Positions 1 to 19,821 of a DNA stretch of 34,772 nt are shown here, in pieces. The notes under the pieces are model-generated. The model was not told the origin of the DNA. It saw only the letters and a list, made by a program, of their open reading frames with translations, and ran no database searches. This DNA comes from an uncultured Actinomycetota bacterium (GTDB taxonomy: Bacteria > Actinomycetota > Actinomycetes > Mycobacteriales > Geodermatophilaceae), in assembly GCA_963766765.1 (NCBI GenBank), contig CAVYBR010000006.1, positions 1 to 34,772 on the forward strand. Direction: 5' to 3'. Numbering within the stretch: position 1 is the first letter of the stretch; each line of letters begins with the position of its first letter. Position numbers and translations under genes: made by a program.

Positions 1-58
1 CCACCAGACCCACACCGCCTAGGAGTAGGCCGAACGTCGGATCATGAGAGCCAGCTGG

Positions 59-1150: not shown

Positions 1151-1178
1151 TGCGATCGGCAGTCGGGAAAAGCGGGAG

Positions 1179-1212
1179 GCTAGCTGTGGTGTCCAGGGAC
1201 GCCACAGCTAGC
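1179..1212. promoter_or_regulatory. Perfect 11-bp inverted repeat GCTAGCTGTGG-N12-CCACAGCTAGC (a stem-loop or protein-binding palindrome) just upstream of the EcsC-like ORF.
   Basis: Read directly from the sequence at 1179-1189 and 1202-1212. No T-tract follows, so it is not a canonical intrinsic terminator. Confidence 0.4.
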
Positions 1213-1639
1213 TCGAAGCCATTGTTCCGGCGCTAGACCGCGGGTAGGTGGGAGCCGGCCCAGCGAGCGCGGGAGGAGCGAACCAACGGCCTAGTGGGCA
1301 TGGCGCGATCACCCTCCGCCCCCGTCAGCGCTGACCTGATGCGCACGCCGCAGACAGGGGTCGGGATCATCAAGCACTGGACTGCTGAGGTGCCTTCGAA
1401 GATGGTGTAGATCTCCTCGGTGCTCGCCAGAACAGCCCAGCCCGAAGCACCGATCCGTCCCTGACCTGCGGCTTTGCCACTCGGCATTTGCCGTCGGTTG
1501 CCACCGCTTGCCGACGTCCCACGGAACTGTCACGGAACACCGACCACCCTCGTTGCGACGATCATTCGAACCCAAGCTGCCTCCAGGCCGGCCCCAAAGC
1601 CAGCCCCGGCACCGACCGCAGCACCGACACCCACTACCG

Positions 1640-1895
1640 CGTGCTCCACGACATCTCAGACCCCGCCGGCAAACTCACCCGGCGCCGCGCCAGCCGCCTC
1701 CACCACATCCCCGTCGGCACCGAACACGCCCGAACCCCCGTCCTCAAACTCGTCGACGACCTCCACATCCCCATCATCAACGCCGCCACCGGCGAACTCC
1801 TCCGCGAGCTCACCCTCGACCCCACCCGCGACTACCAACCCCTCGGCAGACCCCCAGGCCCACCACCCAAAAACAGAAAACCGGACCCCCGATAA
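1640..1895 (+). pseudogene. C-terminal fragment of an IS481/Mu-type (rve plus Mu-transposase-C) transposase. The N-terminal HTH and DDE core are absent.
   Basis: Translation ...RLHHIPVGTEHARTPVLKLVDDLHIPIINAATGELLRELTLDPTRDYQPLGRPPG matches the characteristic C-terminal tail of actinobacterial IS481-family transposases, which end ...NAATGELLREL.LDPTRDYQP. The upstream portion of the ORF has no transposase features. Confidence 0.45.
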
Positions 1896-1933
1896 GGGGC
1901 CGGTCTGTCCGGTATCTCCTGAGAGATCACAAG

Positions 1934-2012
1934 AGCCGGTGAGGGGACTCGAACCCCTAACCCCCGCTTTACCAGACCATGCCTGTCGTCGTACCGCACC
2001 ACTACCCGAAAG
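1934..2012 (-). tRNA. tRNA-derived 3' fragment (T-arm plus acceptor 3' strand). The 5' half cannot be folded into an acceptor stem, so this is a partial or degenerate tRNA and a possible former integration (att) site.
   Basis: The minus strand reads ...AGGGGTTCGAGTCCCCTCACCGGCT. This is a canonical T-stem/T-loop (GGGG-TTCGAGT-CCCC) followed by a 7-nt acceptor strand and discriminator. No complementary 5' acceptor strand (GCCGGTG) is present upstream. Confidence 0.4.
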
Positions 2013-2026
2013 TTGCCGTTGACCTG

Positions 2027-2047
2027 CTCACTCTCCATTGGAGAGTA
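2027..2047. other. Perfect 7-bp stem-loop ACTCTCC-ATT-GGAGAGT at the edge of a locally AT-richer stretch (2040-2130).
   Basis: Palindrome read directly. It is adjacent to a lower-GC segment that could hold a promoter. Confidence 0.3.
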
Positions 2048-2520
2048 AGCAGCTGTTGGCGACTATGCTCGCTAAATTTCATTCAATCCGGTGAGTAAAA
2101 CGGTGAGTTGCGGTGGGCACGAAGCTGCTTTCGAGCGCAAGCTGGTCCGGAGCGGCACCGAAGATACCGAGCGCTGGAGTCTGGGTTGGTCCCATCTCAG
2201 CGATGATCGGCTTGTGGAACGTGACGCAGGGGGCCAAGTAGCTCACATTTGCCCAGCCACGGTTCAGGGTCGTGGTGAACAGACCGTGTCTGTCTTCGGC
2301 CTGGCCAACGCCACCGTGAACAGCCACTCAGGCGAGGTGATCGGGCGGCCAGGAGGTCGACTCCGATCTGGCCGACGATCCCTAGCGCCTGCATCGACCG
2401 TGAGGGTCGGGCCGGTCTACACGACCCGGTCCGGCATGAAGCACGGCAGCTTGGCGGCGGCTGGGCAGAACGCCGAAGCATCGGAGTCGATTTGATGCAC
2501 GGCGGATCGGGCAGCTTGCG

Positions 2521-3333
2521 TCAGCCGTCAGAGTGGGTGGTGCTGTAAGGGCCAAGGGTTGGCCAGTGGCTAACTCGGCCGGCCAGACGGGCCCGACGCG
2601 GCGTCATGGCGTCGTACGCGACGATCACCCGGTCACCCTTGGCGTAGGAAATACGGCTCCCGACCGGGAACCTGCGAGCGACCTCGTACGGTCCCTCACC
2701 CCGGCGGGTGTAGTACTCGACGGTGACCTCGGTGTACACCACCGGGGCACCGCTCTCCGATTCGCCGCGGATCGGACCTCGCACTCGGGTCACTCGTCCC
2801 GCGGTTTTCTCGTCCAGCTCGGACTTGCGGCGCAGACCGGCCAGGACTTCGGTGACGATGAAGCTCCCGACCACCATCACCAGGCCGAACCCACCGAGTA
2901 CGACGATCGTCAACATGTCGCTGTCGCTGGCGAGGTTGATTGCCGCCGGGATCAAGATGACCAGCCCGAGCCCGGACAGCGTCGCGATGACCAACATGAC
3001 AAGTACCCGGAGTGCACGCGGGGCGACTTTGGTGACTGCGCGGAGTGCGCGCGGGGTGACTTTGCTGAGTGCTCGGAGCGGATGTACACGGCGTCGCCTG
3101 GGGGGCGCGCTATCCGCGGGCGACGAGTCGTGGGTCTGCCCAGGTGGATCCAGCGACTGGCTGTCATCGCCGCGCGAATCCAGCTCACTCGACGCGCCAG
3201 CCTCGGCGATAGGCAGCTTTTGCAGGAAGTCTGATGAGGCGCCCAGCTCACCGAGGGTCGCGGCGAACTCGGCGGAAACCTTTGGATCGCGGGAAGGCGT
3301 CTGCTCGATGGCGCCGGTGGGTTCAGCGTCCAT
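2521..3333 (-). CDS. DUF3592-like membrane protein. It has a disordered N-terminal region, two TM helices and a C-terminal beta-rich domain. The probable start is the second Met, MDAEPTG.
   Basis: ORF 2521..3396 with TM segments (TPRALRVLVMLVIATLSGLGLVILIPAAINL and MLTIVVLGGFGLVMVVGSFIVTEVL) followed by the ...PVVYTEVTVEYYTRRGEGPYEV... domain. That architecture fits DUF3592. The assignment is from memory. Confidence 0.45.
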   Translation of the reverse strand: MDAEPTGAIEQTPSRDPKVSAEFAATLGELGASSDFLQKLPIAEAGASSELDSRGDDSQSLDPPGQTHDSSPADSAPPRRRRVHPLRALSKVTPRALRAVTKVAPRALRVLVMLVIATLSGLGLVILIPAAINLASDSDMLTIVVLGGFGLVMVVGSFIVTEVLAGLRRKSELDEKTAGRVTRVRGPIRGESESGAPVVYTEVTVEYYTRRGEGPYEVARRFPVGSRISYAKGDRVIVAYDAMTPRRARLAGRVSHWPTLGPYSTTHSDG

Positions 3334-4069
3334 GTTGCCTCCTCCATCCCTGCGGCGGTGAGCCAGCCTGCTCGATTGCGGCAGCAGCGCTATCAATTAT
3401 CGCCTGCATCTTGCTTGTCAACAGGTCGGTCCTGGTGATCTTTCCGCCGACTACCAGGCAGCCGCGGATTTGGTTGTTGGCAAAGGTGGGACGTGCGAGC
3501 ATGCCCTCGTGCGGGTCGGCGGTGCTCTGCAGTTGGGCCCAGCTGAGGTTGTACCGGTCAGCGGCGCTTCGTTGCTCCCACATTTCGGGGCCAGCTTTGG
3601 CGGCGGCGCGGTAGAAGGCCCCCCAGTTGATGGCCAGGCGATGCTCGGCCTGAAAGGCGGATCCGACGAAGCCGGTGCCGATTTTGATGGGCGGTTCGCC
3701 GTTGTCGAAGTCGGCGCCGGCCATCACCGCGCCGATCCGATGCAAGCGACGCCGGCGTCCGAGCCGGCGGTAGTAGCGCACTTCAACGGTGGGCCAGTCA
3801 GCACCGACGATGTCGTAGATCTGAACGACAACGGCGGACAAGGTGATGCGAACTTTTTGGTCGTATTTGCGGATGCGCTGGTCTTGCCGGGAGAGGCTGA
3901 TCTCGCCAGCCGCTTCGAGGACCGTGATCACGACGAGAAGGCCAACGGCAGTCCACTCCAGCGCTTCGTGGCGTTGCCACCACCCCTTCGGGAGGTTGAG
4001 CTGCGCGAGGGTGATGATCGCACCGGCTACCGCCACGAGGGTGGCTCGGAGTAGCCGCCACACAACCAT
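3323..4069 (-). CDS. Hypothetical protein with two N-terminal TM helices and a roughly 180-aa C-terminal soluble domain.
   Basis: 248-aa ORF co-oriented with the DUF3592-like gene and overlapping it by about 10 nt. The hydrophobic segments are VVWRLLRATLVAVAGAIITLAQL and ALEWTAVGLLVVITVLEAAG. I recognise no known domain. Confidence 0.45.
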   Translation of the reverse strand: MVVWRLLRATLVAVAGAIITLAQLNLPKGWWQRHEALEWTAVGLLVVITVLEAAGEISLSRQDQRIRKYDQKVRITLSAVVVQIYDIVGADWPTVEVRYYRRLGRRRRLHRIGAVMAGADFDNGEPPIKIGTGFVGSAFQAEHRLAINWGAFYRAAAKAGPEMWEQRSAADRYNLSWAQLQSTADPHEGMLARPTFANNQIRGCLVVGGKITRTDLLTSKMQAIIDSAAAAIEQAGSPPQGWRRQHGR

Positions 4070-4666
4070 GGGGAATTGTGGGCTGCTCCACCGTGATTAA
4101 TCCAGACCTGATGCGGTGGCACTTTGACGCCTCGGAGCCGACGCGCCGCGGCGGAGCTGCTTACTCGCGGCTGGGACGGAAGATTGCGCGACGGCTCCGT
4201 GCCGATGAATCGGGCTGGAGGCCGCCCTGGACGGTGTCGTCGGGGTGGATGCTCAGCGGCCAGACGCCATCGGGGCGTAGGCCGTGACTCGCACCGGCCG
4301 GCCGAGCGCGGGGGCGGTTTGGGCGATCCGTTTGCGAGCCTGCTCGCGCATGTCGGCCAGGTCCTGGCGAGTGAGCGGGTGCTCGGGACCGGTCGTCGTT
4401 CAGCGCGATGTCGATCCGCGGGAACGGCAGCGCCCGGCCCGGGTCGGCAGGAGTTGGGGAGGCGTGGTCATCGTGCCCCGGTGTCACTAGTCGGTCCAGA
4501 ACGGCGGTCGACCGGGTGAGCCCGTACACACCTTGGATCGTCGAGTGCATGCAAGAGGCTGGCCGCCGGCTGCCCGCTGTTCACGGCTGCTGCCGGGTCT
4601 GAGCTGGGTAACGCCCCACTACGTGCACGCCTTCGGTTGAGGGCTCACAGACGCGGCGCGTCCTGC

Positions 4667-5256
4667 TCAGCTCGGACAGCGGTTCGGCGCAGGCTTGCTC
4701 GTGGCTTCGCGCGCCGTCTGCTCAGCTGCGGGTGGGCCTTTCTTAGACGGCGTCGCCACCGGTGGTTTGCCGTCCTGGATCGGTGTGATGGGTGTGATGG
4801 TGATGTCGTAGTCCTCGGTGGCTTCGTCGACGACGGCGTCGTAATGCGCGGCGCGGCCGCGGGCGAGAACCTGGATCAGGTGCAGGCCCGGTGCTGCGGG
4901 TCTGTAGACGAGCGATGCTGGCCCGATGCCCTCCAAGGAGGCGAGATACAGGTCGTCCGCGATGAGGATTGCAGCTTGTTCTGCGACGTCCCACCCGTCC
5001 ACGCTGGCCGTAAGGTCCGGCAGTGGCTCGTGCCGATCCGGACGGTGACGTTGACCGGACCGCTGGCACCTGCCCTAGTCTGGCTGGCCGTTGGCCCGTC
5101 TGCCTGCCGGTCAGATGGCGCGACGACTGCCGCCGGCGTACCAGGAGTCGCGCTATCCGCTCCAAAGAGTATGGCGTTGCTCTCGTCTACGACGAAGCGC
5201 TCGAGGAGTTCGGCGCGGCTGGCCACCGAGGCGTATCGACCACACATGCCAGCCAC
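4667..5256 (-). pseudogene. SOS-response-associated peptidase (SRAP / YedK / DUF159) gene, frameshifted. The N-terminal MCGRY part and the central DGW part lie in different frames.
   Basis: ORF 4876..5256 begins MAGMCGRYASVASRAELLERF, with the catalytic Cys2 MCGRY hallmark. The 4667..5074 frame contains ...ASVDGWDVAEQAAILIADDLYLA..., which resembles the xADGWYEW core. The two parts are in different reading frames, and the 5' ORF runs on into junk sequence. Confidence 0.55.
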
Positions 5257-5627
5257 CCTGCCACGTCACACGGACAACAGCAGCGATGCCAGCGGAGCTA
5301 CCGGCCTCGAATGGGGTGCACCGCAAACGCCTGGCCAGCGAGGAAGCCGCGCACCTACCGTGATCGGGTGGTCGCCAGCCCGGCGGCCAGGAGGGTGCCG
5401 CCGGGGTCTGAGGCGAACGTCATCAGCCTACGTACGTCGACGGCGTTCACGATAGGGTCGGGCGCCGACCGCTCCGGCCGGTATGGCGCCGGACGGTGAT
5501 AACGGCGGCATCGCGATCCGGATCGCGCCGGGCGTGTCACGCGGTCTGAGCGGTGATCCGGGGCCGGTCCGGGGCGCCGGCGGGCGGGAGCCGGTGATAG
5601 TGGCAGTATCGACGGGACGGCCAAGAG

Positions 5628-5906
5628 TCAGTCCGGGAAATCGGGCTCGTCTCCCCAGGCCGCGGATCCGGCGCTGGGTGCGCTAGCGCTGCCCGCGCCG
5701 GCCGACTGCGCAAAGGGGCTGCTGATGCTGGCGCTGTCGGTGCTGCGATAGATCACCCGGTCACCGACGACCGTGCCCGCGTACTGTCCGTTGGGGTCGT
5801 ACACCTTGTCACCCTGGATCCGGCCCACGTGCGTCCCCGAGCGCGAGAACAGGTCGTTGCCGCTCCGCCGCAGGGGTCGGCCGTTCTTTGTGTAGAGATC
5901 TGCCAT
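5628..5906 (-). CDS. Small repeat protein resembling the 4-fold beta-flower family, with repeated G-x-x-V-G-x-I-x-G-D-x-V-Y-D units.
   Basis: 92-aa ORF MADLYTKNGRPL...GTHVGRIQGDKVYDPNGQYAGTVVGDRVIYRS... with internal repeats. The ATG is preceded by a purine-rich stretch. Confidence 0.45.
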   Translation of the reverse strand: MADLYTKNGRPLRRSGNDLFSRSGTHVGRIQGDKVYDPNGQYAGTVVGDRVIYRSTDSASISSPFAQSAGAGSASAPSAGSAAWGDEPDFPD

Positions 5907-5980
5907 CCCTCAATTGTGCGCTCGGTCGGCGACTCAGTAGAACGCTGTGGCTCCCGGTGCGTCGGGCTCGTGGTGTCTGC

Positions 5981-6580
5981 TCAACGTGCCTCCGGGGTGC
6001 GGCCTCCTGGGCCGCTCGCTGGGGAGTCCAGCAACGCGATTCGCTCGGCAGAGCTTCCCAGCTGGTCCGGCCGGCGCCGACGTCGGGAAGGATGCGGGTC
6101 GACGTCGAGTTCGATGCGAGCGACGTCGACCAGGTGGTGGCGTCGCTTGTTCATCAGCTGCACGAGACCCTCAAGTTGGTCAGGTGTCGTGTCGCCGGCA
6201 CCGATGGCGTTGCCCAGATCGACGATCACGTCGGCACAGAGGTCTGCCGCGTCGACGACCTCCTTGCTGCCGATGAACCGGATCACGGTCAGAGCCTCAC
6301 CGGCATCCCGGAGCGCAGTTTGGATCGGGACCGCCTGCTGCAGCACACGAATCGGCGCCAGGGAGGCCAGTAGCCGCGGCTTGCTGTTCTTCGAGACGAG
6401 CTCCTGCATCGCCAAGGCGACGTCGGAGAGTCGGGTCCACGCGGTCGTGTACGCGGCCAGCCGCTGCTGATGCCACTGTTTGCGATCACTGCGTTTCGAC
6501 TGCCGGCGATCACCGAGCCAGGCTGTCAGTGCGGTCAGCAGCGCACCGACTGCGACACCGATCAAGGACTCCACCCGCAC
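5981..6580 (-). CDS. Hypothetical protein with a single N-terminal TM anchor.
   Basis: 199-aa ORF. N-terminal hydrophobic helix LIGVAVGALLTALTAWL, then a mostly helical soluble part. No known domain. Confidence 0.4.
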   Translation of the reverse strand: MRVESLIGVAVGALLTALTAWLGDRRQSKRSDRKQWHQQRLAAYTTAWTRLSDVALAMQELVSKNSKPRLLASLAPIRVLQQAVPIQTALRDAGEALTVIRFIGSKEVVDAADLCADVIVDLGNAIGAGDTTPDQLEGLVQLMNKRRHHLVDVARIELDVDPHPSRRRRRPDQLGSSAERIALLDSPASGPGGRTPEAR

Positions 6581-7452
6581 AGGCTAGAGCTCCCCTCAGA
6601 CAGCACCGCAAGGATCGCCGCCCCGGACGAGTTCCTGCGCATGTGTCCGCGTTCTTCATCGACTTCGCCTCGTCCACCGGCGTAAGAACCACGGCTTGTC
6701 CCTGAGCACGAACAACTCTTCCCGTGCACCTCTCCCTCAGCACACGAGCGCGGTCGGCCGCTGTTCACCGGACGGCGTTCCGGGAGACGCGTTGGTGATC
6801 GTCGCCAGGCAGCGGGAACGGCAGCGAGTACCCCAACGCCTGCTGACACAACTACCGGGTGAGCACCACGGCCAGGTTCACGGACGTGACCAACTGACCG
6901 CCCTGCCAGAACTTCTCGGGAAACCCTCAGGACTTTGTGTGCGGCGCCTGCCACGATCCAGAAGTCGAGCGCCAGTCGGCGGCAATTGGCCGACGGTTTG
7001 AATTCCAGCCCATCCGGCTCGATGCGGGGTCGCGGGACTGCGCGAGCTCAGCGGGGTCGCGTACCTGCAGTTCGAGCACGCGGGGTCGGGCTGACATGCC
7101 TGCCCCGGTAGGGACACGGACAAGGTCCCACCACGGGCTGTCGCTCGACGCGACCTTAACCGTGCAGCCAGGGCAGGCTGCTGATCGAGCAGCGGGGAAA
7201 GGATTGCTTGTTCTACCAGAGCGCCCGGAAAAACTTGGGGCCAAGTTGTCACAGACCGCCCGATTTCTATGCCTTCTTCGGGCAGAGGGGTCAGGACGGT
7301 CCCGCCGCACCCAGGGTTATCCAGGCCCACGAACCACATCCGAAGCACCGCAGGAAAGAGCAGCTCACCCATGAACGTAGAACCACGACCGCTGGCAAGG
7401 CGCCGGGCGCCACACCACCAGGCCATCTATCTGTGCGGGTGGTCTACCGAGC

Positions 7453-7743
7453 TCAACGACGGGCCGCACTTCTGCCCGCACCGAATCTCTCGTGGACGGC
7501 CTGTTTGCTCACGCCGCCGAACTGCTCGCCGATCGCGGACCAGGACGCGCCGGCGGCTCGCGCTTCCGCGATGTACCGGGCGAGCTCGTCCTCCAGGAGG
7601 TCGAGAACCCACCGGGCTCCCGCGACGTTCTGCAGATGGTCGGGAGCTGGTGCGGCGCCGCTGTCACGTGCGATCGCCCGGCCGGCCTTGTCGATCGCGG
7701 TCCGGAGCTGCCTCTGGATTTCGCGGATCTCGCCGTCAAGCAT
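7453..7743 (-). CDS. Small helix-turn-helix DNA-binding protein.
   Basis: 96-aa ORF with the C-terminal ...AAGASWSAIGEQFGGVSKQAVHERFG... HTH signature common in actinobacterial regulators. Confidence 0.45.
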   Translation of the reverse strand: MLDGEIREIQRQLRTAIDKAGRAIARDSGAAPAPDHLQNVAGARWVLDLLEDELARYIAEARAAGASWSAIGEQFGGVSKQAVHERFGAGRSAARR

Positions 7744-7924
7744 TCCTTGACCCTACCGCGCAGGCGGTTTGTTGCAACAGACCATTTGCATTCCTGACCT
7801 GCGGCTTTGCAGTTGGAGAACCGGGGGTGCTTCTTCCTACCGTCTTGTACGTGGGACGTGCCAGCGCCCATCAACAAGGAACGGCTCCCTGTGCCAGCAG
7901 AGAGCCGTTCGGAAGCGCAACGCC

Positions 7925-8197
7925 ATGGGAGGCTGCAACTCAAGTGAAGAGTACGACGTGCCGGCGACGCCCGGCTATACAGGATCCCGCCACGCTCTGC
8001 CGGGTGTCGTCGTGTTGACCGTCGGGCTGATCGCGTTGGCGATCGTCGCCGCCCCGATGCTCCTGCTCGTCTTCGCGGTCCTGGTCGTCGCCGTACGGTC
8101 GCAGACGCTCGACGCTGCCGGCCGGAAGCATTCGCTGCAGCTCGTAGCGGAAATGACCCGCCTGGCGGGCGTTCTCATCTCGCGCCGGCGCCAGTAA
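7925..8197 (+). CDS. Small membrane protein of about 90 aa, taken from an internal Met of ORF 7769..8197.
   Basis: MGGCNSSEEYDV...GVVVLTVGLIALAIVAAPMLLLVFAVLVVAV... shows two hydrophobic helices. The start choice is uncertain. Confidence 0.3.
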   Translation: MGGCNSSEEYDVPATPGYTGSRHALPGVVVLTVGLIALAIVAAPMLLLVFAVLVVAVRSQTLDAAGRKHSLQLVAEMTRLAGVLISRRRQ

Positions 8198-8741
8198 CCA
8201 ACCGCAGTGCAAGACGGGTCCGTGCCTGGAGCCGATCGCCGTCCAGTCGGGGTGCCTTCAATAGTTGCGGAGGTGACCCCGATTCCCCACAGGGGAGGAG
8301 TTGACCCGTGACGCGACGCTGCCGATACCGGCCCGGCGAGCCAGATCCGTACGCCGCGGACCTGGTTCGTCGGATCCACGGGCTGATGGCACTCGTCGCC
8401 GGTCCGCCTGTCCGGGGACCGTGCGAGGTACGCCGCGAAGACGAACTGCTCCACCACGTCGGCCGACGGAACACCGTGCACCAGATCGCGGATCGGTGGG
8501 CGTACGCGGTCAACGTGATGCGCGCCGGCCGGAAGATCTACCACGTCGCGGGCCCGAGCTCGGCAAGCTTGGGCGTAGACGGGCAGGTTGGACTTTGATG
8601 CGCAACAACAGCCCCTCGGACCTTCGCAGCTGGGAGCAAGGATTTCGGGTTCGCCTTGTAGAAGGCCGGTCGAGCATCGAGCCTCGCGTCGGCTGCCACG
8701 GATGATCGGTCCCAGGACAGCACCGACGACTACCTCACGGT

Positions 8742-10247
8742 GTGCACGATCTGACGACAGACGGCATAGTCTGCCAGCGGCTTCGACGCCAAGGGTACGT
8801 TCTACGTGTGCTCGAACCGCTCAGGCAGGACTTGTGGGACATTATCCACCCAACACTCGCACCGGCGCGGGATGCCGGGAGGCAATATCTCGAGTCGAAT
8901 CACTATGTGGAACGGACCGACGAGCGCAAGTACCGCGAAAGCGACACGGGCTGGCCGCTCATTATTGCTGATCGAATGTTCGCGGAAGGACCGCCGAACT
9001 GGCGTTCACTGTTCTCCGCAGAGCCCGGCCAGTTGTCGAAGGTACTGGTCGACGAGGTTCCCGCGCTGGCACAGGGAATGCGGGCCGCGGTTGATCTCGC
9101 CGAGCGGGACGCCGAGTTCGCCGAAGGGCTGACCTACCTCTATGAAATCGCAGATCCAGATCGCCGTACGCGATACCTGCAGGGCGAGTTCCTGTCGATC
9201 GTCGGCGACATTCTCGGTCGCGCAGAATCCCTGGGGGTCGAGGACGAGGACGGTCTGCTGGATCTCTACCTCCAGGTCGAGCGTGGCCGGTTCGCAACGG
9301 AGCTCACCGGCGACATCATCGTCCCATTGGTGCTGACTGCCTTCGATATGTCGGAGCCTGTCCAGATGTTGGACTCGTTCTGGCTCGAGCCGATGAGCGT
9401 GGAACTGCAGCGTGCGCGTGCGCTGGATCAGATGTACTCGGAAACCGTGTCGCCGTGGATCGCAGCAGCGGCAACACACGCGATCGTTCAACGCGAAGTC
9501 GTATTTCCCAACACGATGTGGCCGCCAAAACTTCAGCGCGGTGCCGATCGATCGCCCGTACCACTCGAGACCGTCGATCGAGTTCTCGAATGCATCCACT
9601 TGGTGACCGGCAAGAGGACCGGCTATGCGCAGGTTCTCGTGAGAGCGGACAGCTGGGTTTCGTGGTCTGGCTGGATCGGCGATCTACCGCATGTCTGGAG
9701 AGCGGCAACGACGAAGGCATACTCGGATAGCTTCGACGGTGGCTGGTTGCAGCCGAAGCAACCCATCTCCGAGGCTGAGACGGCGGAGATCGCAATCGTC
9801 CTCGCAGCCCTGGTCAGAGCTCCGAAGAACGTGCAACTCGCCGCTCGCCGATGCTTCCGATCGACCTTTCGCGTAGACGTCAAAGACGAGATTCTCGACG
9901 CGACCATCGGCATCGAAGCGCTGCTGAGCCACGGCCGAGATGAGCTGACACACCGGATGTCACAGCGGGCCGCTGCCGCCTTGGCAGGAGAGTTCCGCTC
10001 CGACGCCATCTATCAGCTCCTCAAACAGGTCTACACGCAACGATCCCAAATCGTTCACGGGAGCACGCCGAAGAACTCAAAGGTTCGATTCGAGGACTCC
10101 GACTACTCGACGAACCACATGGGAGTATTCCTGCTCCGCAAGCTGCTCCGAAGCTACCTACTCGCCGACGAACCCTGGACGCCGACCAGTCTGGACGACC
10201 TGATCATCCAGAGGCTTGGCCGCGTCGAGACCGATGGAGCGCCTTGA
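8742..10247 (+). CDS. 501-aa protein with a C-terminal HEPN-like putative RNase domain (R-x4-H motif) and an uncharacterised N-terminal domain. Candidate abortive-infection or toxin protein (ApeA/Abi-like architecture).
   Basis: Intact 1.5-kb ORF in a segment of visibly lower GC (about 55-60%). The C-terminal ...DEILDATIGIEALLSHGRDELTHRMSQRAAAALAGEFRSDAIYQLLKQVYTQRSQIVHGS... contains the conserved helix plus the Rx4-6H motif (TQRSQIVHG) diagnostic of HEPN domains. The GTG start at 8742 is uncertain; internal Met codons at 8979 and 9078 are alternatives. Confidence 0.55.
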   Translation: MHDLTTDGIVCQRLRRQGYVLRVLEPLRQDLWDIIHPTLAPARDAGRQYLESNHYVERTDERKYRESDTGWPLIIADRMFAEGPPNWRSLFSAEPGQLSKVLVDEVPALAQGMRAAVDLAERDAEFAEGLTYLYEIADPDRRTRYLQGEFLSIVGDILGRAESLGVEDEDGLLDLYLQVERGRFATELTGDIIVPLVLTAFDMSEPVQMLDSFWLEPMSVELQRARALDQMYSETVSPWIAAAATHAIVQREVVFPNTMWPPKLQRGADRSPVPLETVDRVLECIHLVTGKRTGYAQVLVRADSWVSWSGWIGDLPHVWRAATTKAYSDSFDGGWLQPKQPISEAETAEIAIVLAALVRAPKNVQLAARRCFRSTFRVDVKDEILDATIGIEALLSHGRDELTHRMSQRAAAALAGEFRSDAIYQLLKQVYTQRSQIVHGSTPKNSKVRFEDSDYSTNHMGVFLLRKLLRSYLLADEPWTPTSLDDLIIQRLGRVETDGAP

Positions 10248-10614
10248 AGTTGCGGTGCTGCTGAGTCAGAGCCTGCCGATCAGTATGCTGGTTCGTGCGT
10301 GACGGATGCGCGGGCTGAGCACGACGGTCCGAACGAGCAGGCACTCACGGCACGACCACAGGAGAAGCAGCTCGGCACTGGTCGCCCGTGCAGCTGGACC
10401 AGGTCCAGGTCGTTGAGTGGAACACTGCTCATATCGGGATCTGGTCCGCGTACCGCTCGAAGAGCGGATTCGATCTCGCTCCGGGCCGACCTGCTCGTGG
10501 CGCTGGCTTCGGAGCGCAATTCGTCAGCCCGGTTGCTGATCTCGGGCCCGCCGGTCGACACGACCGGTCGGGCCGCGTGATGGACCGCGCACTGCCACAC
10601 TGAGCGCTCGAGGA

Positions 10615-11601
10615 ATGTCCCACCCGGGTGGAGTGGCGAACGGGTCGGGCGGCCGATTCCCGACCTACCGACGATCTGGAGGTCATGTGGCGAGACCGAC
10701 CGTGAGCACCATCGTGGCCGCTGTCCGCAGGTCTACGCACAGCGAACTGGTGGCGAGGTACTACCGGCGGATCGTCACAGTCCCGCTCACACTGGCGGTC
10801 GGTTGGTTCAGTGGGTTCATGGTCGTCGGGATCGCGATCTTCGTTGTGCTAGGAATCATCGGCGCAGACAAAGATGCCTTCATGGATCGGCACGTGGGAC
10901 ACATCAGCTTGCTGATCGGTGGAGTCGTGATCGCGGTCCTGGTGACGGCTCGCCGACGATTGATGCTGGTCGCAGATGAGACTGCTCAGCCGACGTACCC
11001 GCGACCCGCACGATCGGAGTGGCCAAGCCGAGCTCGCGATGTCGCGATTTTCTATGTGTTCATGGGCCTGGCGGCGTTGTGGATCGGCGTAGTCATCGTC
11101 GTCAGCATCATCGCGACTGTCGCGGCAAGGTTGTTCGGAGTGGACGAGATCTCCGATCTCGTGTGGATCCTCCCGATCTCCGTGCTGACCCTTCCGCTGG
11201 CCGTGTGGTCCTATGGACTCGGGCGGAACACTCACCTTGCTCAGCTCGAATCGGCGACGCCGCCGGCCCTTCAACGCGCACATCGGCTGCGCGATCTGGC
11301 CCAGTCCCTCGAGGATGCGATGCACGAGGCGACGCTCATGGCCGACGAGCTCCAGACAGCAATCGACACGGAGAAGAGCATGGTCGCTGAGCTGTTGAAA
11401 CAGTCCGCCGAGGCCAGACGAATCGCCGACATCGAATCCGACCAGCTCAACGCCCTCCTGGCCCATCAGGAGCGTCGTCAGCATCGCAGCACGATCCGCG
11501 AACGGTGGATCAACATCGTTGTCGCCGTGCTCGGCCTGATCGTGGGCTACCTGCTCAACTTGGTCAGTCCAGCCTTCTTCACAGGTCTCTTCAGTCATTG
11601 A
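10615..11601 (+). CDS. Integral membrane protein with about 6 N-terminal TM helices, a roughly 70-aa coiled-coil segment and a C-terminal TM helix. The true start is probably an internal Met.
   Basis: 328-aa ORF, co-oriented and immediately downstream of the HEPN-like gene, with the same lower-GC composition. TM segments include LTLAVGWFSGFMVVGIAIFVVLGIIG, ISLLIGGVVIAVLVTA, VAIFYVFMGLAALWIGVVIVVSIIATV, LVWILPISVLTLPLAVW and WINIVVAVLGLIVGYLLNLV. The coiled coil is ...LRDLAQSLEDAMHEATLMADELQTAIDTEKSMVAELLKQSAEARRIADIESDQLNALLAHQERRQ. Confidence 0.5.
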   Translation: MSHPGGVANGSGGRFPTYRRSGGHVARPTVSTIVAAVRRSTHSELVARYYRRIVTVPLTLAVGWFSGFMVVGIAIFVVLGIIGADKDAFMDRHVGHISLLIGGVVIAVLVTARRRLMLVADETAQPTYPRPARSEWPSRARDVAIFYVFMGLAALWIGVVIVVSIIATVAARLFGVDEISDLVWILPISVLTLPLAVWSYGLGRNTHLAQLESATPPALQRAHRLRDLAQSLEDAMHEATLMADELQTAIDTEKSMVAELLKQSAEARRIADIESDQLNALLAHQERRQHRSTIRERWINIVVAVLGLIVGYLLNLVSPAFFTGLFSH

Positions 11602-11779
11602 CCGAACGCAACTGGGCGCCCGCGTGGCAAACTTCAACGCAAGTCACTGGACGCCCAGAATTACGAGGTGAATGTTCTCCAAGTGGCTGTGACAGCGAAT
11701 CCTGACGTCGTTTGCTCGTGAAAGCTAGCGGCACTTGGGCGGGGGCTGAGGTGAGATCTCCGCGACTTTTGATGTCAGC

Positions 11780-12650
11780 GCGAGTGGATCGGCGGCGGCG
11801 AGGGCGGGTGGAGCAGACGGATCGCACGATGCGCTCGGTGACCCGGACCAGGATCGGGCGACCATACCGCTCGGTGTTGGGGATCTGGGCCAGCGCCAGG
11901 ATCAGTCGCCGTGATGTGGTTGGTCGCGGTGTTGCTGCCGGCGTTGCCCGGGGCGCAGCAACCCGGCCGGTGCTTCACCGGTCTTGTCGAGGAACGCCAC
12001 CAGCGGGTTGGTACCCGAAGCCGCCTCTGAACGTGGCAGCAGCCGATTCTTTCTCGCCGGTGACAGGTGACCAGGCTGGCGTCGATGTCGATGACCAGGG
12101 CCGGCAGCACAACCCACCCGCGGCTGCGGCCGGCAACACCCGCCCAACTTCTGTCCGTGCCGGAAACCGACTCTCCAGCGACCTCGGCGTCACCAAGCTC
12201 GTCCTCAAGCAATGTCTACCCTGACAGCGCCAGGCGATCGAGGAGACAGACCAGGTCGGCTGACTGCAAGGACAAGCCCGCCGCCGGCACATCGTTCCAC
12301 TCGGACGGCCAAGCGAGGCCCGCAAACCCATCCTCCGCGGAGATGTCGGTCTCCCCCGTCGGCAGCAGCAAGAACCCGGCGCCGGTGCGAGGTTCGAGGT
12401 ACGCGGTGTGCGCCGCCGACTCAACGGCCGCGATCTCGACGGGCCTGGGGACGCCGACGTCAATCGTAAGGTCCTGGTCTCGCAGCAGCGGGCGCGACGG
12501 CTCGGGGCCGACGTTCAGGTTCCGGTGATAGTAGGCCGAGACCGCCGGCAGCGGAATCCGGCACGTCTGGAGGTCGTGTGTCACCCGCACTACCTTTGCC
12601 AACCCAGCTTTACGAACGGCTGGACGCATTCTTGACGATCTGATGACACC
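11780..12650 (-). pseudogene. IS1380-family (DDE) transposase remnant, frameshifted into at least 3 frames and C-terminally truncated.
   Basis: Minus-strand frames contain, in the correct order, ...ALVIDIDASLVTCH... (first Asp region), ...TFRGGFGYQP..., ...LVAFLDKTGEAPAGLLRPG... and ...APGNAGSNTATNHI... These correspond to the KGGFGYHPL / AFLDxTGE / RPGNAGSNTAxDH signature blocks of IS1380-type transposases. The blocks are split between ORFs 11775..12212, 11975..12463 and 11902..12147. Confidence 0.55.
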
Positions 12651-13002
12651 TGACGTCATCGAGCTGACGACATGAATTGCGGTGCCCAATATTTGCCTCG
12701 CCAAGTCATGGATCCACAGGTCGGGGTGGCTCTGGGCGAAGAAAGGTTGAGACGAAGCGGCGGGGGCGTCCCACAACTTCTTCTCCGGAGCGTCGTCGTC
12801 GCTGCGAGTCGCTGGAGTATTCCGGTGGTGCGGCGAGATTGCGGGCCGGGGACTTCCCGGCGACGCCCGTACTCCACCGATCTGGCAATGATCGACGTGA
12901 AACGTTGGGGCTGCAGGTCCGATGTACACCTTGTTGGGGGCATGCTGAGATCTGCCAACGAGTCGCTGGCCGCTCGGCAACGCGTTACCACAAGGGGGCA
13001 GG

Positions 13003-13644
13003 ATGTCGGGAGCAGGTCATGGGCCCGGAGGATCACCGAGATCGGTGCCTCATTGGCTCGCGATAGCGGCAGCAATCGCCACCGTCATCGGCGTGCCGAT
13101 AGCCATCTATGCGATCGTTTCCGACCCAGGTGACGCCGCTCCGCTCTCGCCGACAACGAACTCGGCGACCACGAGTTCACCGACGCAGAGCGCAAGCCCG
13201 CCGGTCACGCCGGCATCTAGTCCGGTCACAGCGAGTCCGACACCAACGCACGTCCCCACGCCCTCACCCACCCCCACGTCGGCACTTCCCGAGCCGCTCA
13301 AGATCGAAGCGGTCGAGATCGAATTCGGCGAAAGTGCTGGCGGCATCGGGCCGGGCATGTACTCCCTGCGCGCGCAGAGCAAGGTCAACCTTCACTTCTG
13401 GTGGACGACTCACACCAATTACGGCGAACTCGATGGCAAGAAGTGCACTGTCGTCGCTCAGACCCGCAACGCGGCGACCGGATCCTTCGTCAGCGGCGAC
13501 TCAAACTACCCCACGGACGTGTGCTCCTGGAAGGGGTGGCTGGCAATCCAGGTGCCCGAGGGCAGATACCAGGTCAGAGTGAAGGTGACTACCGCTGGCG
13601 GGTCGACTCGCACAGGCGTAGCCAACTTCACAGTCGTGGGATGA
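13003..13644 (+). CDS. Membrane-anchored protein with a Pro/Thr/Ser-rich linker and a roughly 110-aa C-terminal beta-rich domain.
   Basis: 213-aa ORF with ATG preceded by AAGGGGGCAGG. The TM segment is HWLAIAAAIATVIGVPIAIYAIV. A PT-rich low-complexity spacer is followed by a Trp- and Cys-containing globular domain. Confidence 0.55.
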   Translation: MSGAGHGPGGSPRSVPHWLAIAAAIATVIGVPIAIYAIVSDPGDAAPLSPTTNSATTSSPTQSASPPVTPASSPVTASPTPTHVPTPSPTPTSALPEPLKIEAVEIEFGESAGGIGPGMYSLRAQSKVNLHFWWTTHTNYGELDGKKCTVVAQTRNAATGSFVSGDSNYPTDVCSWKGWLAIQVPEGRYQVRVKVTTAGGSTRTGVANFTVVG

Positions 13645-13950
13645 CCCGACCACAGGAACGAGTTCACCAACAACTTAGACCTACGGATCCTGTGAAGACG
13701 GGCCGGCACCCAACCGAGCGACTCCTTGCGGGCCCGATCAGCGCCGCGTCCGCCCTCAATGGTTACGGAACCAACGCCTCCGCCGGTTGCATGTCGACCG
13801 GCGAAACGCATGGATCCGAGGATGTGCGTCGATGGCGTTGGTAAAGACCAGTGGCCGCGAGCGGCGGCCGTCGTCGCACGACCGCGTCAGGCCGTCGATC
13901 GGCTTGTGCAGGCAGTCAGACCCGATCGGTGCACAGGAGGGTGGCGGGCT

Positions 13951-14679
13951 TCATTTGTCTGTGCCTTCGATCAGAGCGTCCCAGTCGATCGTCGTACTGC
14001 CAGGGCTTCCCTCGCCCAGGACGAACCTGCTCGGGTCGCCCGCCGCGCGGGCGCCTGAGGCGAGCCAGGCAGCGAGTCCGGGTGGATTCCGTCGCTCCAG
14101 TTCGTCGAGGAAGGCACGACGCGTCTCAATGATGCGAGAGCGCTCCGCCGGGGATTTAGCCGTCTCCAGAGCAGAGAAGCTGGCCCGCCACGCCAAGCAC
14201 AAGGCATCATCACTCAGCTCGGCAGCCTCGGTTTCTGCAGAGACGGTCAACTCGGCTTCCCACAGAGTGCCGGCGGGCGCAGTCTCCGGCAGGTGCTCGT
14301 CCGGATCCCGGCGCTGCGGCAGTTGGCCCTGCTCTCTGAGCCAACCCATCCAACGACGCGCGACGTACGGCGATCCACCGACGGCCAGCGCCAGCACGAG
14401 CACCGCCATCGGCGCGCCCAGGAGCGACCCGAGTCCGACGAACGCTACGGTGCCTGCTCCGGAGACAACCGTATTCGTGGCAACCAAAGGCCACTGCTGC
14501 CGCTTGACCTGGGTGCCGTCTGCCGGTGTCAGGGCGACCATGGTCGCGGCAGCTCCGGTCAGCGCGGCCAGGACGAACAACAGGATCTGCGTCGACCGCT
14601 CCCAGGTGAGTGCGGCCATCGCGCCGGTCACCCCGACGGCGCCGCAGAAACTCAGCCAGGCAACCCGATGCACCCTCAT
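13951..14679 (-). CDS. Hypothetical 4-TM membrane protein with a conserved cytoplasmic C-terminal domain (paralogue A).
   Basis: 243-aa ORF from an internal Met of ORF 13951..15078. The ATG is preceded by GGAGGAGAAGG. It is paralogous to the disrupted copy at 16355..17109 and shares the ...LSDEALCLAWRASFSAL...RSRIIETRRAFLDELERR...AAWLASGARAAGDPSRFVLG...IDWD... blocks. Confidence 0.55.
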   Translation of the reverse strand: MRVHRVAWLSFCGAVGVTGAMAALTWERSTQILLFVLAALTGAAATMVALTPADGTQVKRQQWPLVATNTVVSGAGTVAFVGLGSLLGAPMAVLVLALAVGGSPYVARRWMGWLREQGQLPQRRDPDEHLPETAPAGTLWEAELTVSAETEAAELSDDALCLAWRASFSALETAKSPAERSRIIETRRAFLDELERRNPPGLAAWLASGARAAGDPSRFVLGEGSPGSTTIDWDALIEGTDK

Positions 14680-15151
14680 CCTTCTCCTCCAACCTACGAG
14701 GCTGTTGCTGCAAGCCTGTTCTGAAACACGAGTGACCCCTAGGGCAACGACCGGCGAACACATCGCCCGCAGATCGCCGACGTCCGGCAATGAAGGCGGC
14801 CCGCAAGGAAGATCGTGCGCGTGCCCATGCGGACGTACGCCGGGGAAGGCGTTGCGAGGCATCCGACGGTCCGATCGGGGGCCCTCACGGGCGTGCTCTG
14901 GCTGCTGTTCATCGGCCTCCACACCACCTTCCTCGTGCAGCACTGGCTCGGCGTCGAGGGCATGCCGCGGCACTACGCCTCGTACGGCGCCAACCGCGCA
15001 TCGGCGGACAACCTGCTGGACGCCGGCTACGACGAGGGCCGCGTGGAGAATCTGGAAAAGAACATCGAAAACGAACACTCCGACACCCGGGCCGCGGCGG
15101 TGACTCCAGGGAATGAAAGGCCCGGGATGGGCGACGAGGATCGGGCAGTTG

Positions 15152-16298
15152 TCAGGCCAACGGTCCTCGATGAGTGTGAACCCGGAGGCCGGGAGTTGGC
15201 GGGTCTGCGGCCAGGTTTGTCAGGTTCGCCAGTACGTCTTGGTAGGCCTTGTTGAAGCTGGCGATGCCGTTGTCCTCCAGGGTGCGACCGACGGCGGTCA
15301 TGTCGACGCCGACGGCCGCCAGCCGCTGCATCAGTTCGGCTGGCTTGCGGCACACCGTTGTCGACGGTGCGAGCCATCGTGCCGTGATCCTCGAAGGCGG
15401 CGATGGTTGCTTCGGGCAAGGTCGTGACCGTTTCGGGGCCGATGAGTTCCTCGACGTAGCGGGTGTCGCGGTCCTTGGGGTTCTTGGTGGACGTCGAGGC
15501 CCACAGCGGACGCTGGACATCTGCGCCCAGGCCGGCGAGCCGGTGCCAGCGCTTGGTAGAGAACTGTTCGGTGAACAACCGGTAGGCCAGCTTGGCCTGC
15601 GCGACCGCGGCCTGGCCGCGCAGGGCGAGCGCCTCGTCGGTGCCGAGCGCCTCGAGTCGCTGGTCGACCTCGGTGTCGACCCGGCTGACGAAGAACGAGG
15701 CGACGCTGCTGACGGTCGAGGGATCGCCGCCGTTGGCGGTGAACTTCTCCAGCCCGGACAGGTAGGCCTCGATGATCTCGGCGTACCGGGACAGGCGAGA
15801 ACAACAGCGTCACGTTGATGCTGGCACCCTCGCCGATCAGTGCTTCGACGGCGGTGACGCCTTCCGCAGTTGCGGGAATCTTCACGAGCAGATTGGGTTG
15901 GGCGATACGACGGCGCAGCCACCGCGCGGCGGCGATCGTTGCCGGGCGCGTCGTGAGCCAGCTCGGGAGACACCTCCACCGACACGAACCCGTCGATGCA
16001 GTCACCCCCGTCGAAGACCGGTCGCAGTACGGCGAGCGCCTGACTGGCGTCGGAGATGACCAGCTCCCAGTAGGCCTCGTCCACCGACTTGCCGGCGGCC
16101 ATCAGCTCCGAGAACTGTTCGTCGTAGTCGTGGGAGCCGGTGATACTCCGGGCGAAGATCGTCGGGTTCGCGGTGACGCCGCGGATCCCGTCGGCGACCA
16201 TGCGCGCCAGGGTGCCGTCACGCAGAGTAGGCGCGGGTGAGGTTGTCCAGCCATGGGCTCTGCCCGAAGTGGCCGTAGAGGTGTTCCAGCTTGGTCAT
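15152..16298 (-). pseudogene. tal: Transaldolase (tal) with at least 4 frameshifts and one internal stop.
   Basis: Transaldolase blocks are spread over three minus-strand frames. They run from MTKLEHLYGHFGQSPWLDNLTRAYSA(stop) and LRDGTLARMVADGIRGVTANPTIFARSI...VSVEVSP, through ...[35 protein letters not shown]... and ...[42 protein letters not shown]..., to the C-terminal ...[31 protein letters not shown]. Confidence 0.7.
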
Positions 16299-16354
16299 CG
16301 TGTTCTCGGTCTCCCTGGCATCCGGCCAGCTGCGGCTATCGAGTTTGTGGTTGT

Positions 16355-17109
16355 TCACTTGTCCGTGTCGTGGAGCAGGTCGTCCCAGTCAATGGGGGCG
16401 CGACCTGCCGCGCCGTCTCCCAGGACGAACCTGCTGGGGTCTCCGGCTGCTCTCGGTCCGGACGCCAGCCACGCGGCCATGCCGTGCGCGGTGCGGCGCT
16501 CGATCTCGTCGAGATACGCCCGGCGCTCGTCGACGATCCGCAACCGTTGCGTCGGCGAACCGGCTCTTTGCAGGGCCGAGAAGCTGGCCCGCCAGGCCAC
16601 GCAGAGGGCTTCGTCGCTCAGGGCATCCGGCGCGATGTGAGGCTTGGGCGCCTGGTCTGGTTCGGTCCCCAAGATGGGTGCCGTCGCCGGACGTTGACGA
16701 GCGGTCGGCACGATCCGGTCGGAGAGGCCGAGGTGACGAGCTGGCCAGGTGGCCGTGTTCGAGGAGCCAGCGAAGGCAGTAGCGAATCGCGTACGGGGAT
16801 GCCGCCGACGAGGATGGCCAGCAGTAGCACCGCTGTCGGCGCGCCTACCAAGGTGCCCAGGCCGATGAAGGAGACCGTGCCGCCCGCGGTGAGGGCTGTG
16901 CTGCGGGCCACGATCCGTCGTCGATCCCGCGGAGGTCGGCTGGGACCGTCGGGGTCCGCCAAAGCGACCATGGCCACGACTGCACCCGTGAGTGCCGCGA
17001 GGACGAGCAGCATGATGACGTTCGTGAGTGACCAGGTGAAGGCCATGACTGCGCCTAGCGGCGCCGAGCACACCACAGAAGAACAACCAGAAGACTCGAT
17101 AGGCCTTCA
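16355..17109 (-). pseudogene. Disrupted paralogue (copy B) of the 4-TM protein at 13951..14679, with two frameshifts.
   Basis: N-terminal MKAYRVFWLFFCGVLGAA... and C-terminal ...LSDEALCVAWRASFSALQRAGSPTQRLRIVDERRAYLDEIERR...IDWDDLLHDTDK sit in ORF 16355..17233. The central TM region (AVMAFTWSLTNVIMLLVLAALTGAVVAMVAL...GLGTLVGAPTAVLLLAILVGG) is in a different frame, ORF 16618..17076. Confidence 0.5.
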
Positions 17110-17411
17110 TGGTGTGTTCTCCTGCGCCGTAGCGTCGGCGCGTCGAGGCGGGCTGCGACTGATTGGTCCACGACAAACCTCCTTGCGGCGGCGGGCGGAT
17201 CCCGAAGGAGACGGCCCTGACTCGGTCATGCACACGAGCGACAGCCCGCCGGCGTCCGTGCCTGGTGAGCCGAGCTCCGGGGTCTTGCTCGTGCAGCTAC
17301 GACTGTGCCGCTGCGGGGCGATGACAGGTACGGCAACGATCGGCGAACCTGAGGCGGCCTTGATGGCCGACGCCCGGCAACGATGGCCCGCGGGAGCAGG
17401 GTCGGGGTCGG

Positions 17412-18828: not shown

Positions 18829-19821
18829 ATGACGAAGGCAACTGCTGTGAACAATCGGGGTCGTCGGGCAGTTGTGGTCGGGGTTGACGGCTCGGTATCC
18901 GCGCAAGGCGCGCTGGCCTGGGCCGCCGCCGAGGCGATCGTCGAGGCATCGTCCCGCTGCGCATCGTTCACGCCTTCAGTTGGCCGATGATCGGCAACCC
19001 CCTGGGCATGGACCTTCGCCGGAGACATGAACGTCGGCCTGCAGTCCGCGGCCGAGTGGATCCTCACCGAGGCGGAGGCACACGCGCGCGAAGCTGCGCC
19101 CGACATCAAGGTCACCGCTAACCTGTTGGTCGGTCCCGCGGCGCCGACGCTACTGAACGAGGCACAGGATGCCGAACTGGTGGTCGTGGGCAGCCGTGGC
19201 GTCGGCGGCTTCCGCGGCCTGCTGGTGGGGTCGGTGAGCTCTACCGTGGCTGCGCACGCCCCGTGTCCGGTGATCGTCGTTCACCCGCACCGAGACGGTA
19301 CGGCGTTCCCCGCGTCGCCGACCGGCCGGGTCGTGATAGGCGTCGACGGCTCGGAGGTCTCGGCCGCGGCGATCCGTTTCGCCTTCCAGGAAGCGGCACG
19401 CCTCCGCGTCGGAATCACCGCCGTACATGCCGCGATGCCGACCCGTCAGCACCCGTCACTGCGCGTCCCCGCGGACATCGTCGAGCAGGTCGACCGGCAA
19501 CTGTTCGCCGAGGCGATGGAAAGCAAGCGGGTACTCATCCCCGGCATCGACGTAAAGACCAAACTCGTCCACAGCCACCCGGTCCAGGCGCTGCTCGACG
19601 AAGCTGACGGCGCCGAGCTGCTCGTGGTCGGGTCGCACGGGCGCGGTGGCTTCACCGGCATGTTGCTGGGCTCGATCAGCCATGCAGTGTTGCAACACGC
19701 GGCCTGCCCCGTGGCCGTCGTCCGTCCACACCTGACCCCGGCCCTGAAACCCTCATCTGCGGGCCGTCTCCAGCTTGCGATCGCGTCATCGGATCGAGCT
19801 CGCGGATCTGAAGGAGCTGTC
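18829..19821 (+). pseudogene. Tandem universal stress protein (two UspA domains) with frameshifts near the N-terminus and no stop codon before aceE.
   Basis: MTKATAVNNRGRRAVVVGVDGSVSAQGALAWAAAEA is in ORF 18796..18990. The rest of domain 1 and domain 2 (...[34 protein letters not shown]... and ...[35 protein letters not shown]...) is in the 19027.. frame, which continues without a stop into aceE. Confidence 0.55.

Follow-up and report, generated by a model that had tools for sequence, protein, structure and literature searches.

An undescribed family of candidate single-protein HEPN ribonucleases, represented in a low-GC region of an uncultured actinomycete contig

Introduction

Do two neighbouring genes set in the stretch of lowest GC content of an actinomycete contig, beside an insertion sequence (IS) remnant, form a single phage-defence module, or have they come to lie side by side by chance? 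The question is raised by contig CAVYBR010000006.1 of an uncultured Geodermatophilaceae bacterium (Actinomycetota; assembly GCA_963766765.1), of which the 34,772 nucleotides analysed are referred to below as the window. A first-pass annotation, made from the sequence alone, had described two intact, co-oriented genes on the plus strand, gene 1 and gene 2, and had proposed that they encode a HEPN nuclease and its membrane partner. Both open reading frames (ORFs) are present, at 8742-10247 (501 residues) and 10615-11601 (328 residues) in their longest forms. Alignment of homologues and database gene models shorten both, placing the likely start of gene 1 at a GTG codon at 8808 (8808..10247, 479 residues, VLEPLRQDLW...) and that of gene 2 at a GTG codon at 10687 (10687..11601, 304 residues).

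The analysis reported here favours a different arrangement. With a probability of roughly 0.6, gene 1 stands alone and is horizontally mobile, encodes a HEPN ribonuclease that acts as a single protein and belongs to a family not yet described, and is a candidate abortive-infection system.

The C terminus of gene 1 is predicted to be a compact HEPN domain

Residues of gene 1 are numbered here on the 479-residue protein. The AlphaFold2 model, generated with an alignment of homologues, had a predicted local distance difference test score (pLDDT) of 91.4 and a predicted template-modelling score (pTM) of 0.89, and its C-terminal domain (residues ~322-471; 9771..10220, plus strand) was folded as the four-helix up-down bundle of HEPN proteins. 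The closest structural matches of this domain were the HepT-type HEPN toxins 8xdj, 5yep and 7ae2. No HEPN family of Pfam was matched, whereas the model and the structural comparison both gave HEPN matches. Two members of the family are labelled "HEPN domain-containing protein" by NCBI.

The first-pass annotation had drawn attention to a conserved block in this region, DEILDATIGIEALL...QVYTQRSQIVHGS, as a helix followed by an R-x4-H catalytic signature. The block is present in gene 1, and CAGGTCTACACGCAACGA is read directly at 10026-10043 of the window, in the motif region. The signature itself, R412 S Q I V H417 (10041..10058, plus strand), was invariant across the family and was aligned by hhalign with R502-x4-H507 of Ec2ApeA. 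In 40 homologues aligned end to end, E370, R383, R387, R412, S413, H417 and G418 were invariant, and E370, R387, R412 and H417 remained so in 29 distant homologues of 22-30% identity. E370, within an IGIEAL helix, corresponds to the conserved acidic residue of the first core HEPN helix. The predicted fold and the invariant residues indicate that the C-terminal domain has a compact HEPN fold with an intact catalytic motif, and bear out the original assignment.

The ~320 residues that precede this domain belong to no known fold or family recognised by Pfam, NCBIfam, PADLOC or Foldseek, in agreement with the earlier remark that the N-terminal region was unrecognisable. A Foldseek search of the whole model against the PDB returned no match at E ≤ 0.001, nor was gene 1 matched in PDB searches by sequence or by family profile. 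In the model the region is divided into a mostly helical N-terminal part (residues 1-162; 8808..9293, plus strand) and a middle alpha/beta part (residues ~165-310; 9300..9737, plus strand). Residues P173, A222, H224, G272 and W283 of the middle part are invariant in the family, also at 22-30% identity, and the conserved motifs AAATHA and TGYAQ lie at the starts of strands in the model.

The gene 1 family is widespread, undescribed and predicted to be mobile

A word-indexed search recovered 45 homologous proteins. At E ≤ 1e-30, 484 representative clusters were returned by an exhaustive profile search, the majority from Actinomycetota and most of them full-length proteins of ~480 residues, with 1,910 clusters at 1e-10 and 8,618 at 1e-3. 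The phyletic distribution was patchy, with 16 gene 1 loci in a pattern-limited scan of 185,579 species representatives. The named actinomycete hosts were Kribbella, Nocardioides, Georgenia, Kocuria, Micromonospora, Jiangella, Nocardia, Pseudonocardia, Mycolicibacterium, Microbacterium, Promicromonospora, Blastococcus and Nanopelagicales, and distant copies were present in one Lachnospiraceae and one Bacteroidota metagenome-assembled genome (MAG). The genes upstream of these two distant homologues had no match in the PDB, and embedding in a restriction-modification operon was not established.

When gene 1 and 69 family members were scanned against Pfam, NCBIfam, PADLOC and PHROGs, no match was obtained other than a single weak one to a PHROG family without an assigned function, positioned over the HEPN motif. 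The family is thus absent from PADLOC, Pfam and NCBIfam. The gene is under purifying selection, the ratio of nonsynonymous to synonymous substitution rates (dN/dS) being 0.20 against the homologue in L001 and 0.12 against that in L002 (L numbers denote the collected loci). In 17 of 18 loci the GC content of gene 1 was below that of its flanks, by 2-11 points, and one copy is carried on a linear Rhodococcus plasmid (L028). On the strength of the plasmid copy and the GC deficit, the family is considered horizontally mobile and accessory.

The neighbourhoods of the homologues were often rich in defence and mobile genes, with recognised defence or conflict genes within ~9 kb in L001, L002, L026, L027, L028 and L031; none was recognised in L003 or L025. 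In a Nanopelagicales MAG (L027) the homologue lies near a Lit-like Peptidase_U49, a HEPN_RES_NTD1-RES protein, a Shedu SduA_C protein, and Vsr with a C5-methylase (Dcm). A NACHT-LRR NTPase and a Mu transposase are found in L026, and an integrase, a helix-turn-helix protein, an M78 peptidase and HEPN_AbiV in L002, where the AbiV-type gene is ~4.4 kb from the homologue. L001 (Kribbella sp. NPDC055110) holds Tox-REase-2, ParB_N/DUF4326 and MerB/MerR; the plasmid holds an Abi family protein, HNH, RAMP and PAPS reductase; and L031 holds DUF4365, a single-stranded DNA-binding protein (SSB), HNH, a phage-type lysozyme and an intein-bearing DnaE. When 124 neighbours were scanned in bulk, the list was extended by three integrases, type I methyltransferases, two AbiLi genes, an HpaII restriction endonuclease with Dcm, a TrwC relaxase and IstB, together with ordinary metabolic genes. 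The low GC content that the first-pass annotation attributed to the islet recurs across the family, whose members are often found among defence and mobile genes.

The L027 sequence from 1 to 17395 is a dense defence island surrounding the homologue. It further holds LRAT, AAA_22 and HATPase_c_3 genes, and several unannotated genes of 237-395 residues that could be further candidates. DUF4365 was considered as a recurrent neighbour of gene 1 and was rejected, being confined to L031 and L032.

Gene 1 and gene 2 lie in independent cassettes

The proposal that the two genes form a module was examined by comparison across loci. Gene 2 was absent from all ~23 independent gene 1 loci, including those of relatives at 67-89% identity, and no gene 2-like neighbour was found beside the close relatives at 67-71% identity. 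Conversely, no relative of gene 1 was present in the annotated contexts of the gene 2 homologues, which represent three independent loci. In tblastn searches of the 33 collected loci gene 2 matched only its own four, and gene 1 matched none of those four. All ORFs of at least 60 residues within 6 kb of gene 1 homologues were also clustered for 18 loci; every cluster present in at least four of them was gene 1 itself or one of its alternate frames, so that no conserved neighbour was detected, and the external clusters linked just 2-3 of the 18.

The DNA sequence placed the boundary between the two genes. The only stretch of the window with DNA similarity to L001 (87.8%) is 8669..10346 (plus strand), the gene 1 cassette; the L001 copy of gene 1 is 89% identical, and the similarity ends ~100-140 bp outside the gene. 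The only stretch with similarity to L021 (86.9%) is 10561..11605 (plus strand), the gene 2 cassette, and the L021 copy of gene 2 is 85% identical. For each gene, similarity to the related Kribbella genomes ceases within ~50-140 bp, and the two cassettes are separated by a 214-bp junction unique to the window. At position 6594 of L021 the gene 2 cassette abuts a different two-gene cassette, which is also located near gene 1 in L001; it follows that such regions are assembled, mosaic-like, from cassettes that move independently. The discrete junctions point to a modular exchange of cassettes that hold one or two genes. A search for repeats bounding the cassettes gave just short repeats at chance level.

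The shared two-gene cassette is 1.6 kb long (L001:1401-3000; L021:4997-6594), is 90.8% identical between the two loci, and encodes proteins of 176 and 309 residues without a Pfam match. In L021 it stops exactly where the gene 2 cassette starts.

Gene 2 encodes a protein with 5-7 hydrophobic segments by hydropathy, followed by a charged helical stretch of ~90 residues (205-297) and a C-terminal transmembrane segment. Six homologues were found in total, all from Kribbella where named. Family scans gave nothing meaningful beyond weak matches of residues 221-315 to PADLOC LeoC (E 0.0069, 14.5 bits) and to TIGR04211 SH3_and_anchor (E 0.0051), which are probably compositional because they are confined to the coiled coil and the terminal transmembrane region. 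The homologue in L024 lies beside conjugation genes (TrbL_3, DUF6112, CHAP) and an nSTAND NTPase, and that in L022 beside transposase remnants. Like gene 1, gene 2 is under purifying selection (dN/dS 0.30 and 0.22; range for both genes 0.12-0.30). Gene 2 encodes a lineage-specific accessory membrane protein of Kribbella and is an unrelated, chance neighbour of gene 1.

What had suggested a two-gene defence or toxin module was that the genes are adjacent, co-oriented and both of low GC content, to which the weak LeoC match in the coiled-coil region of gene 2 might be added. The genes were never found together in other loci and have separate cassette boundaries, and the module is thereby effectively refuted, with hardly a trace of probability left to it. 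The gap of ~440 bp between the stop codon of gene 1 and the likely start of gene 2, and the contrast between six gene 2 homologues and hundreds of gene 1 clusters, argue in the same direction. The gene 2 cassette happens to adjoin gene 1 in a mosaic, IS-scarred variable region.

Gene 1 has the layout of ApeA and probably falls outside the ApeA family

ApeA, which Gao and colleagues are said to have described in 2020, is reportedly a single-protein HEPN anti-phage system. Gene 1 resembles it in being a single gene whose product has an N-terminal region that cannot be annotated, a middle domain and a C-terminal HEPN domain with R-x4-H, and in occurring in mobile and defence settings. With its N-Mid-HEPN architecture, ApeA cuts tRNA anticodon loops, and it is activated by deoxydinucleotides that bind in a pocket where the N domain meets the HEPN domain; its HEPN_ApeA domain is split by insertions and spans ~250 residues, and the protein assembles into a decameric or dodecameric ring (preprint 10.64898/2026.01.26.701840). 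By contrast, the HEPN domain of gene 1 is compact (~150 residues), the protein is shorter (479 residues versus 583-601), and its middle region is a beta-sheet-rich alpha/beta structure, in contrast to the predominantly helical make-up described for ApeA.

For a direct comparison, full-length Ec1ApeA and an Ec2ApeA-type gene were recovered from Escherichia coli genomes, a 29-sequence ApeA alignment was built, and hhalign was used. R412 and H417 of gene 1 fell on R502 and H507 of Ec2ApeA, with the helices QRSQIVHG and TRNLIVHTG aligned; the R502A substitution abolishes defence by ApeA (preprint 10.64898/2026.01.26.701840). The alignment of the family profile with the 29-sequence ApeA profile reached a probability of 40% over 50 columns and covered the catalytic helix alone. 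The probability was 2% when the 40-homologue alignment was compared with the ApeA alignment, and 0.3% when the distant-homologue alignment was compared with Ec1ApeA alone. Homology over the full length, including the N-terminal and Mid domains, was not detected. The ApeA family models (Pfam HEPN_Apea and ApeA_NTD1, PADLOC and NCBIfam) matched neither gene 1 nor any of the 69 family members, with the qualification that precomputed Pfam matches are missing for Ec2ApeA-type proteins too.

Extreme divergence of gene 1 within the ApeA family, with common ancestry along its full length, would account for the shared domain order, the single-gene organisation and the aligned catalytic helices, and an actinomycete ApeA does exist (Thr1ApeA). 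The helical N-terminal region of gene 1 also gave weak Foldseek matches (probability 0.14-0.30) to the actin-binding helical bundles of alpha-catenin, and a weak catenin-like similarity has likewise been reported for the ApeA N-domain (preprint 10.64898/2026.01.26.701840); this echo may be coincidence or the trace of a very distant kinship. Set against these points are the restriction of the profile match to 50 columns and its fall to 2% in the second comparison, the absence of any match to an ApeA model in the family, the compact rather than split HEPN domain, and a protein ~100 residues shorter. Membership was rejected at the level of sequence profiles and is very improbable. By the same evidence, gene 1 is best described as a protein of ApeA-type layout that is not an ApeA family member.

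The two ApeA genes used for comparison have settings of their own. The Ec2ApeA-type gene (L030:2501-4252), annotated in RefSeq as "hypothetical protein", lies in a P2-like prophage between baseplate and tail or virion-morphogenesis genes. The gene for Ec1ApeA carries the annotation apeA, and its neighbours are IS2 and a MobQ relaxase gene.

Composition and flanks of the window

The islet containing both genes was originally put at 55-60% GC against ~70% in its surroundings. A dip is real, and no other stretch of equal length in the window has a lower GC content (equally low windows, 0.4%). The figures were overstated: the islet is at 62.0%, the adjacent flanks at 66.2-66.3%, the sequence beyond 17.4 kb at 68.7% and the whole window at 67.1%, which makes the dip 4-7 points rather than the 10-15 first estimated. 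Nor is the islet a sharp island in a uniform background, because GC content at third codon positions (GC3) is depressed throughout the left 17 kb (0.69-0.77, versus 0.82-0.90 in the core genes on the right).

The region from 1 to 17400 consists mostly of ORFs without a family match in scans of the family libraries, the only matches being EcsC at 59-1150 and a weak DUF6362-like ORF of 96 residues at 7453-7743. It may represent a larger acquired or degraded region. Most of the gap between genes 1 and 2 is occupied by an antisense ORF of 106 residues (10280-10600, minus strand); the surrounding stop-to-stop frame (10280-10732) has a GC3 of 0.72 and lies partly inside the 214-bp junction. Scans of the region for promoters, terminators, tRNAs and Rfam families yielded nothing informative.

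An IS1380-like remnant had been noted at the edge of the islet, and its identity was confirmed. The sequence at ~11835-12124 (minus strand) showed 71-76% identity by blastn to annotated IS1380 family transposase genes on 65 actinomycete plasmids; the NCBIfam NF033539 match to this stretch, taken alone, was weak (E 0.033). The element is a remnant because just ~290 bp survive.

The first-pass annotation had also contrasted the two intact genes with frameshifted surroundings. Frameshifts are indeed present. In the ORF at 19027-22563 (plus strand, 1,178 residues) a universal-stress-protein fragment (residues 24-237) is artificially fused to pyruvate dehydrogenase E1 (aceE; residues 285-1078, corresponding to E1 residues 7-790 of 886), and aceE continues in a different frame at 22166-22546 (plus strand, E1 residues 795-871). 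A transaldolase gene is split over two frames on the minus strand, at 15152-16201 (profile positions 18-92) and 15331-16002 (residues ~105-170). Since the frameshifts strike core housekeeping genes, they point to assembly indels, which are the most likely explanation, with genome decay as the alternative. Because core genes are frameshifted as well, the intactness of genes 1 and 2 carries no signal, and as a biological contrast the observation is probably an assembly artefact.

Discussion

The properties of gene 1 fit those of several known HEPN effectors without placing it in any of their families. DARNA, or PD-T7-3, is a single-protein HEPN tRNase activated by single-stranded DNA (ssDNA) bound to SSB (preprint 10.64898/2026.02.22.705581). 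Like gene 1 it is a single chain of ~55 kDa in which a HEPN R-x4-H domain is joined to a large domain of unassigned function, the sensor in DARNA, and it acts by abortive infection, as would gene 1 by analogy. Unlike gene 1, DARNA has its HEPN domain at the N terminus and is all-helical with a Pds5-like sensor, and PADLOC scans gave no match linking the two. AbiV, HepS and PrrC/RloC, among other HEPN abortive-infection effectors, resemble gene 1 in that the effector either stands alone or is fused to a sensor; gene 1 differs from them in having no sequence-family match, and PrrC uses an ABC ATPase while HepS binds a phage tail-tip protein. No family with the architecture of gene 1 appears in the retrieved passages of the 2013 HEPN census (PMC3710099).

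The HepT-type structures closest to the gene 1 HEPN domain are those of toxin-antitoxin (TA) toxins, and copies of the gene occur on a plasmid, in regions rich in IS or integrative and conjugative elements, and beside polymorphic-toxin genes. These features would suit a toxin whose purpose is not phage defence but mobile-element addiction or conflict between elements. The antitoxin that neutralises it would have gone unrecognised, and could be a small protein, an RNA or a covalent modification, or else the N-terminal region of the protein itself. HepT/HEPN-MNT toxins, however, are minimal proteins of 130-140 residues that are AMPylated by an adjacent MNT antitoxin, whereas gene 1 has an N-terminal extension of ~320 residues and is ~3.5 times their size, and so large a conserved region fits regulated single-chain effectors better. 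No adjacent ORF of at least 60 residues, and no MNT antitoxin, was conserved over the 18 loci, the nearest candidate being one weak NTP_transf_2 gene ~1.9 kb away in L003. Nor was an upstream array of tandem repeats found, such as type III TA systems carry (8000-12000 was searched, and only a 25-bp repeat inside the gene was present), and there was no Rfam match. A toxin of this kind is unlikely. A role outside conflict, in RNA processing or nucleotide binding, or a catalytically inert protein, is improbable to a greater degree. The housekeeping surroundings of L003 and L025 speak for it, as does the statement in the retrieved census passages that many HEPN domains are non-catalytic (PMC3710099). 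The strict conservation of R-x4-H and of the helix 1 glutamate, the patchy distribution of the family (16 loci in the pattern-limited scan) and the variable context with a consistent GC deficit speak against it.

Several points weigh against reading gene 1 as an abortive-infection ribonuclease. Copies were found neither in phage genomes by tblastn nor in IMG/VR viral contigs, and family scans of the window found no recognised defence gene near gene 1. In L003, and in L025 where it lies between dapB and thyA, the homologue is flanked by housekeeping genes. The frequent location beside defence and mobile genes, which is typical of accessory defence genes, is a qualitative observation made without a background rate. 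Ribonuclease activity and phage defence are predictions made from sequence, a sensory role of the N-terminal region, with its middle part as the sensory or regulatory module, is guessed from sequence conservation, and dimerisation, trigger and RNA target are proposed by analogy only with ApeA, DARNA, HepS and PrrC.

Modelled on these four systems, an abortive-infection ribonuclease encoded by gene 1 would most likely dimerise through its HEPN domains, and the N-terminal and middle regions would keep the dimers inactive. A phage-derived cue sensed by these regions would then license cleavage of RNA, the target most likely being tRNA anticodon loops or mRNA, and cleavage would arrest the infected cell, resulting in abortive infection. 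A fuller version of this proposal, which we hold tentatively and at somewhat less than even odds, is that the family is a new single-protein anti-phage Abi system, widespread in Actinomycetota (Mycolicibacterium, Rhodococcus, Nocardia, Micromonospora and Kribbella among them) and with distant relatives in Firmicutes and Bacteroidota. Its two-part sensor, of a kind not seen before, would consist of the helical module and the beta-sheet module bearing AAATHA and TGYAQ, and would unleash the compact HEPN ribonuclease on detecting an infection cue. The logic would match that of ApeA and DARNA by convergence, with a separate evolutionary origin.

The locus also illustrates how a system can be suggested by a single genome. 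Adjacency and low GC content pointed to a two-gene module, and comparison across loci revealed two independent cassettes; errors of assembly probably account for the difference between intact and frameshifted genes. If confirmed, gene 1 would add a defence family that Pfam, NCBIfam and PADLOC currently miss, and would provide a fresh case of infection sensing by single-chain HEPN effectors, alongside the sensing of deoxydinucleotides by ApeA and of SSB-bound ssDNA by DARNA. Its distribution places it in the Actinomycetota, a phylum whose phage defences bear on antibiotic-producing species and on phage therapy against mycobacteria.

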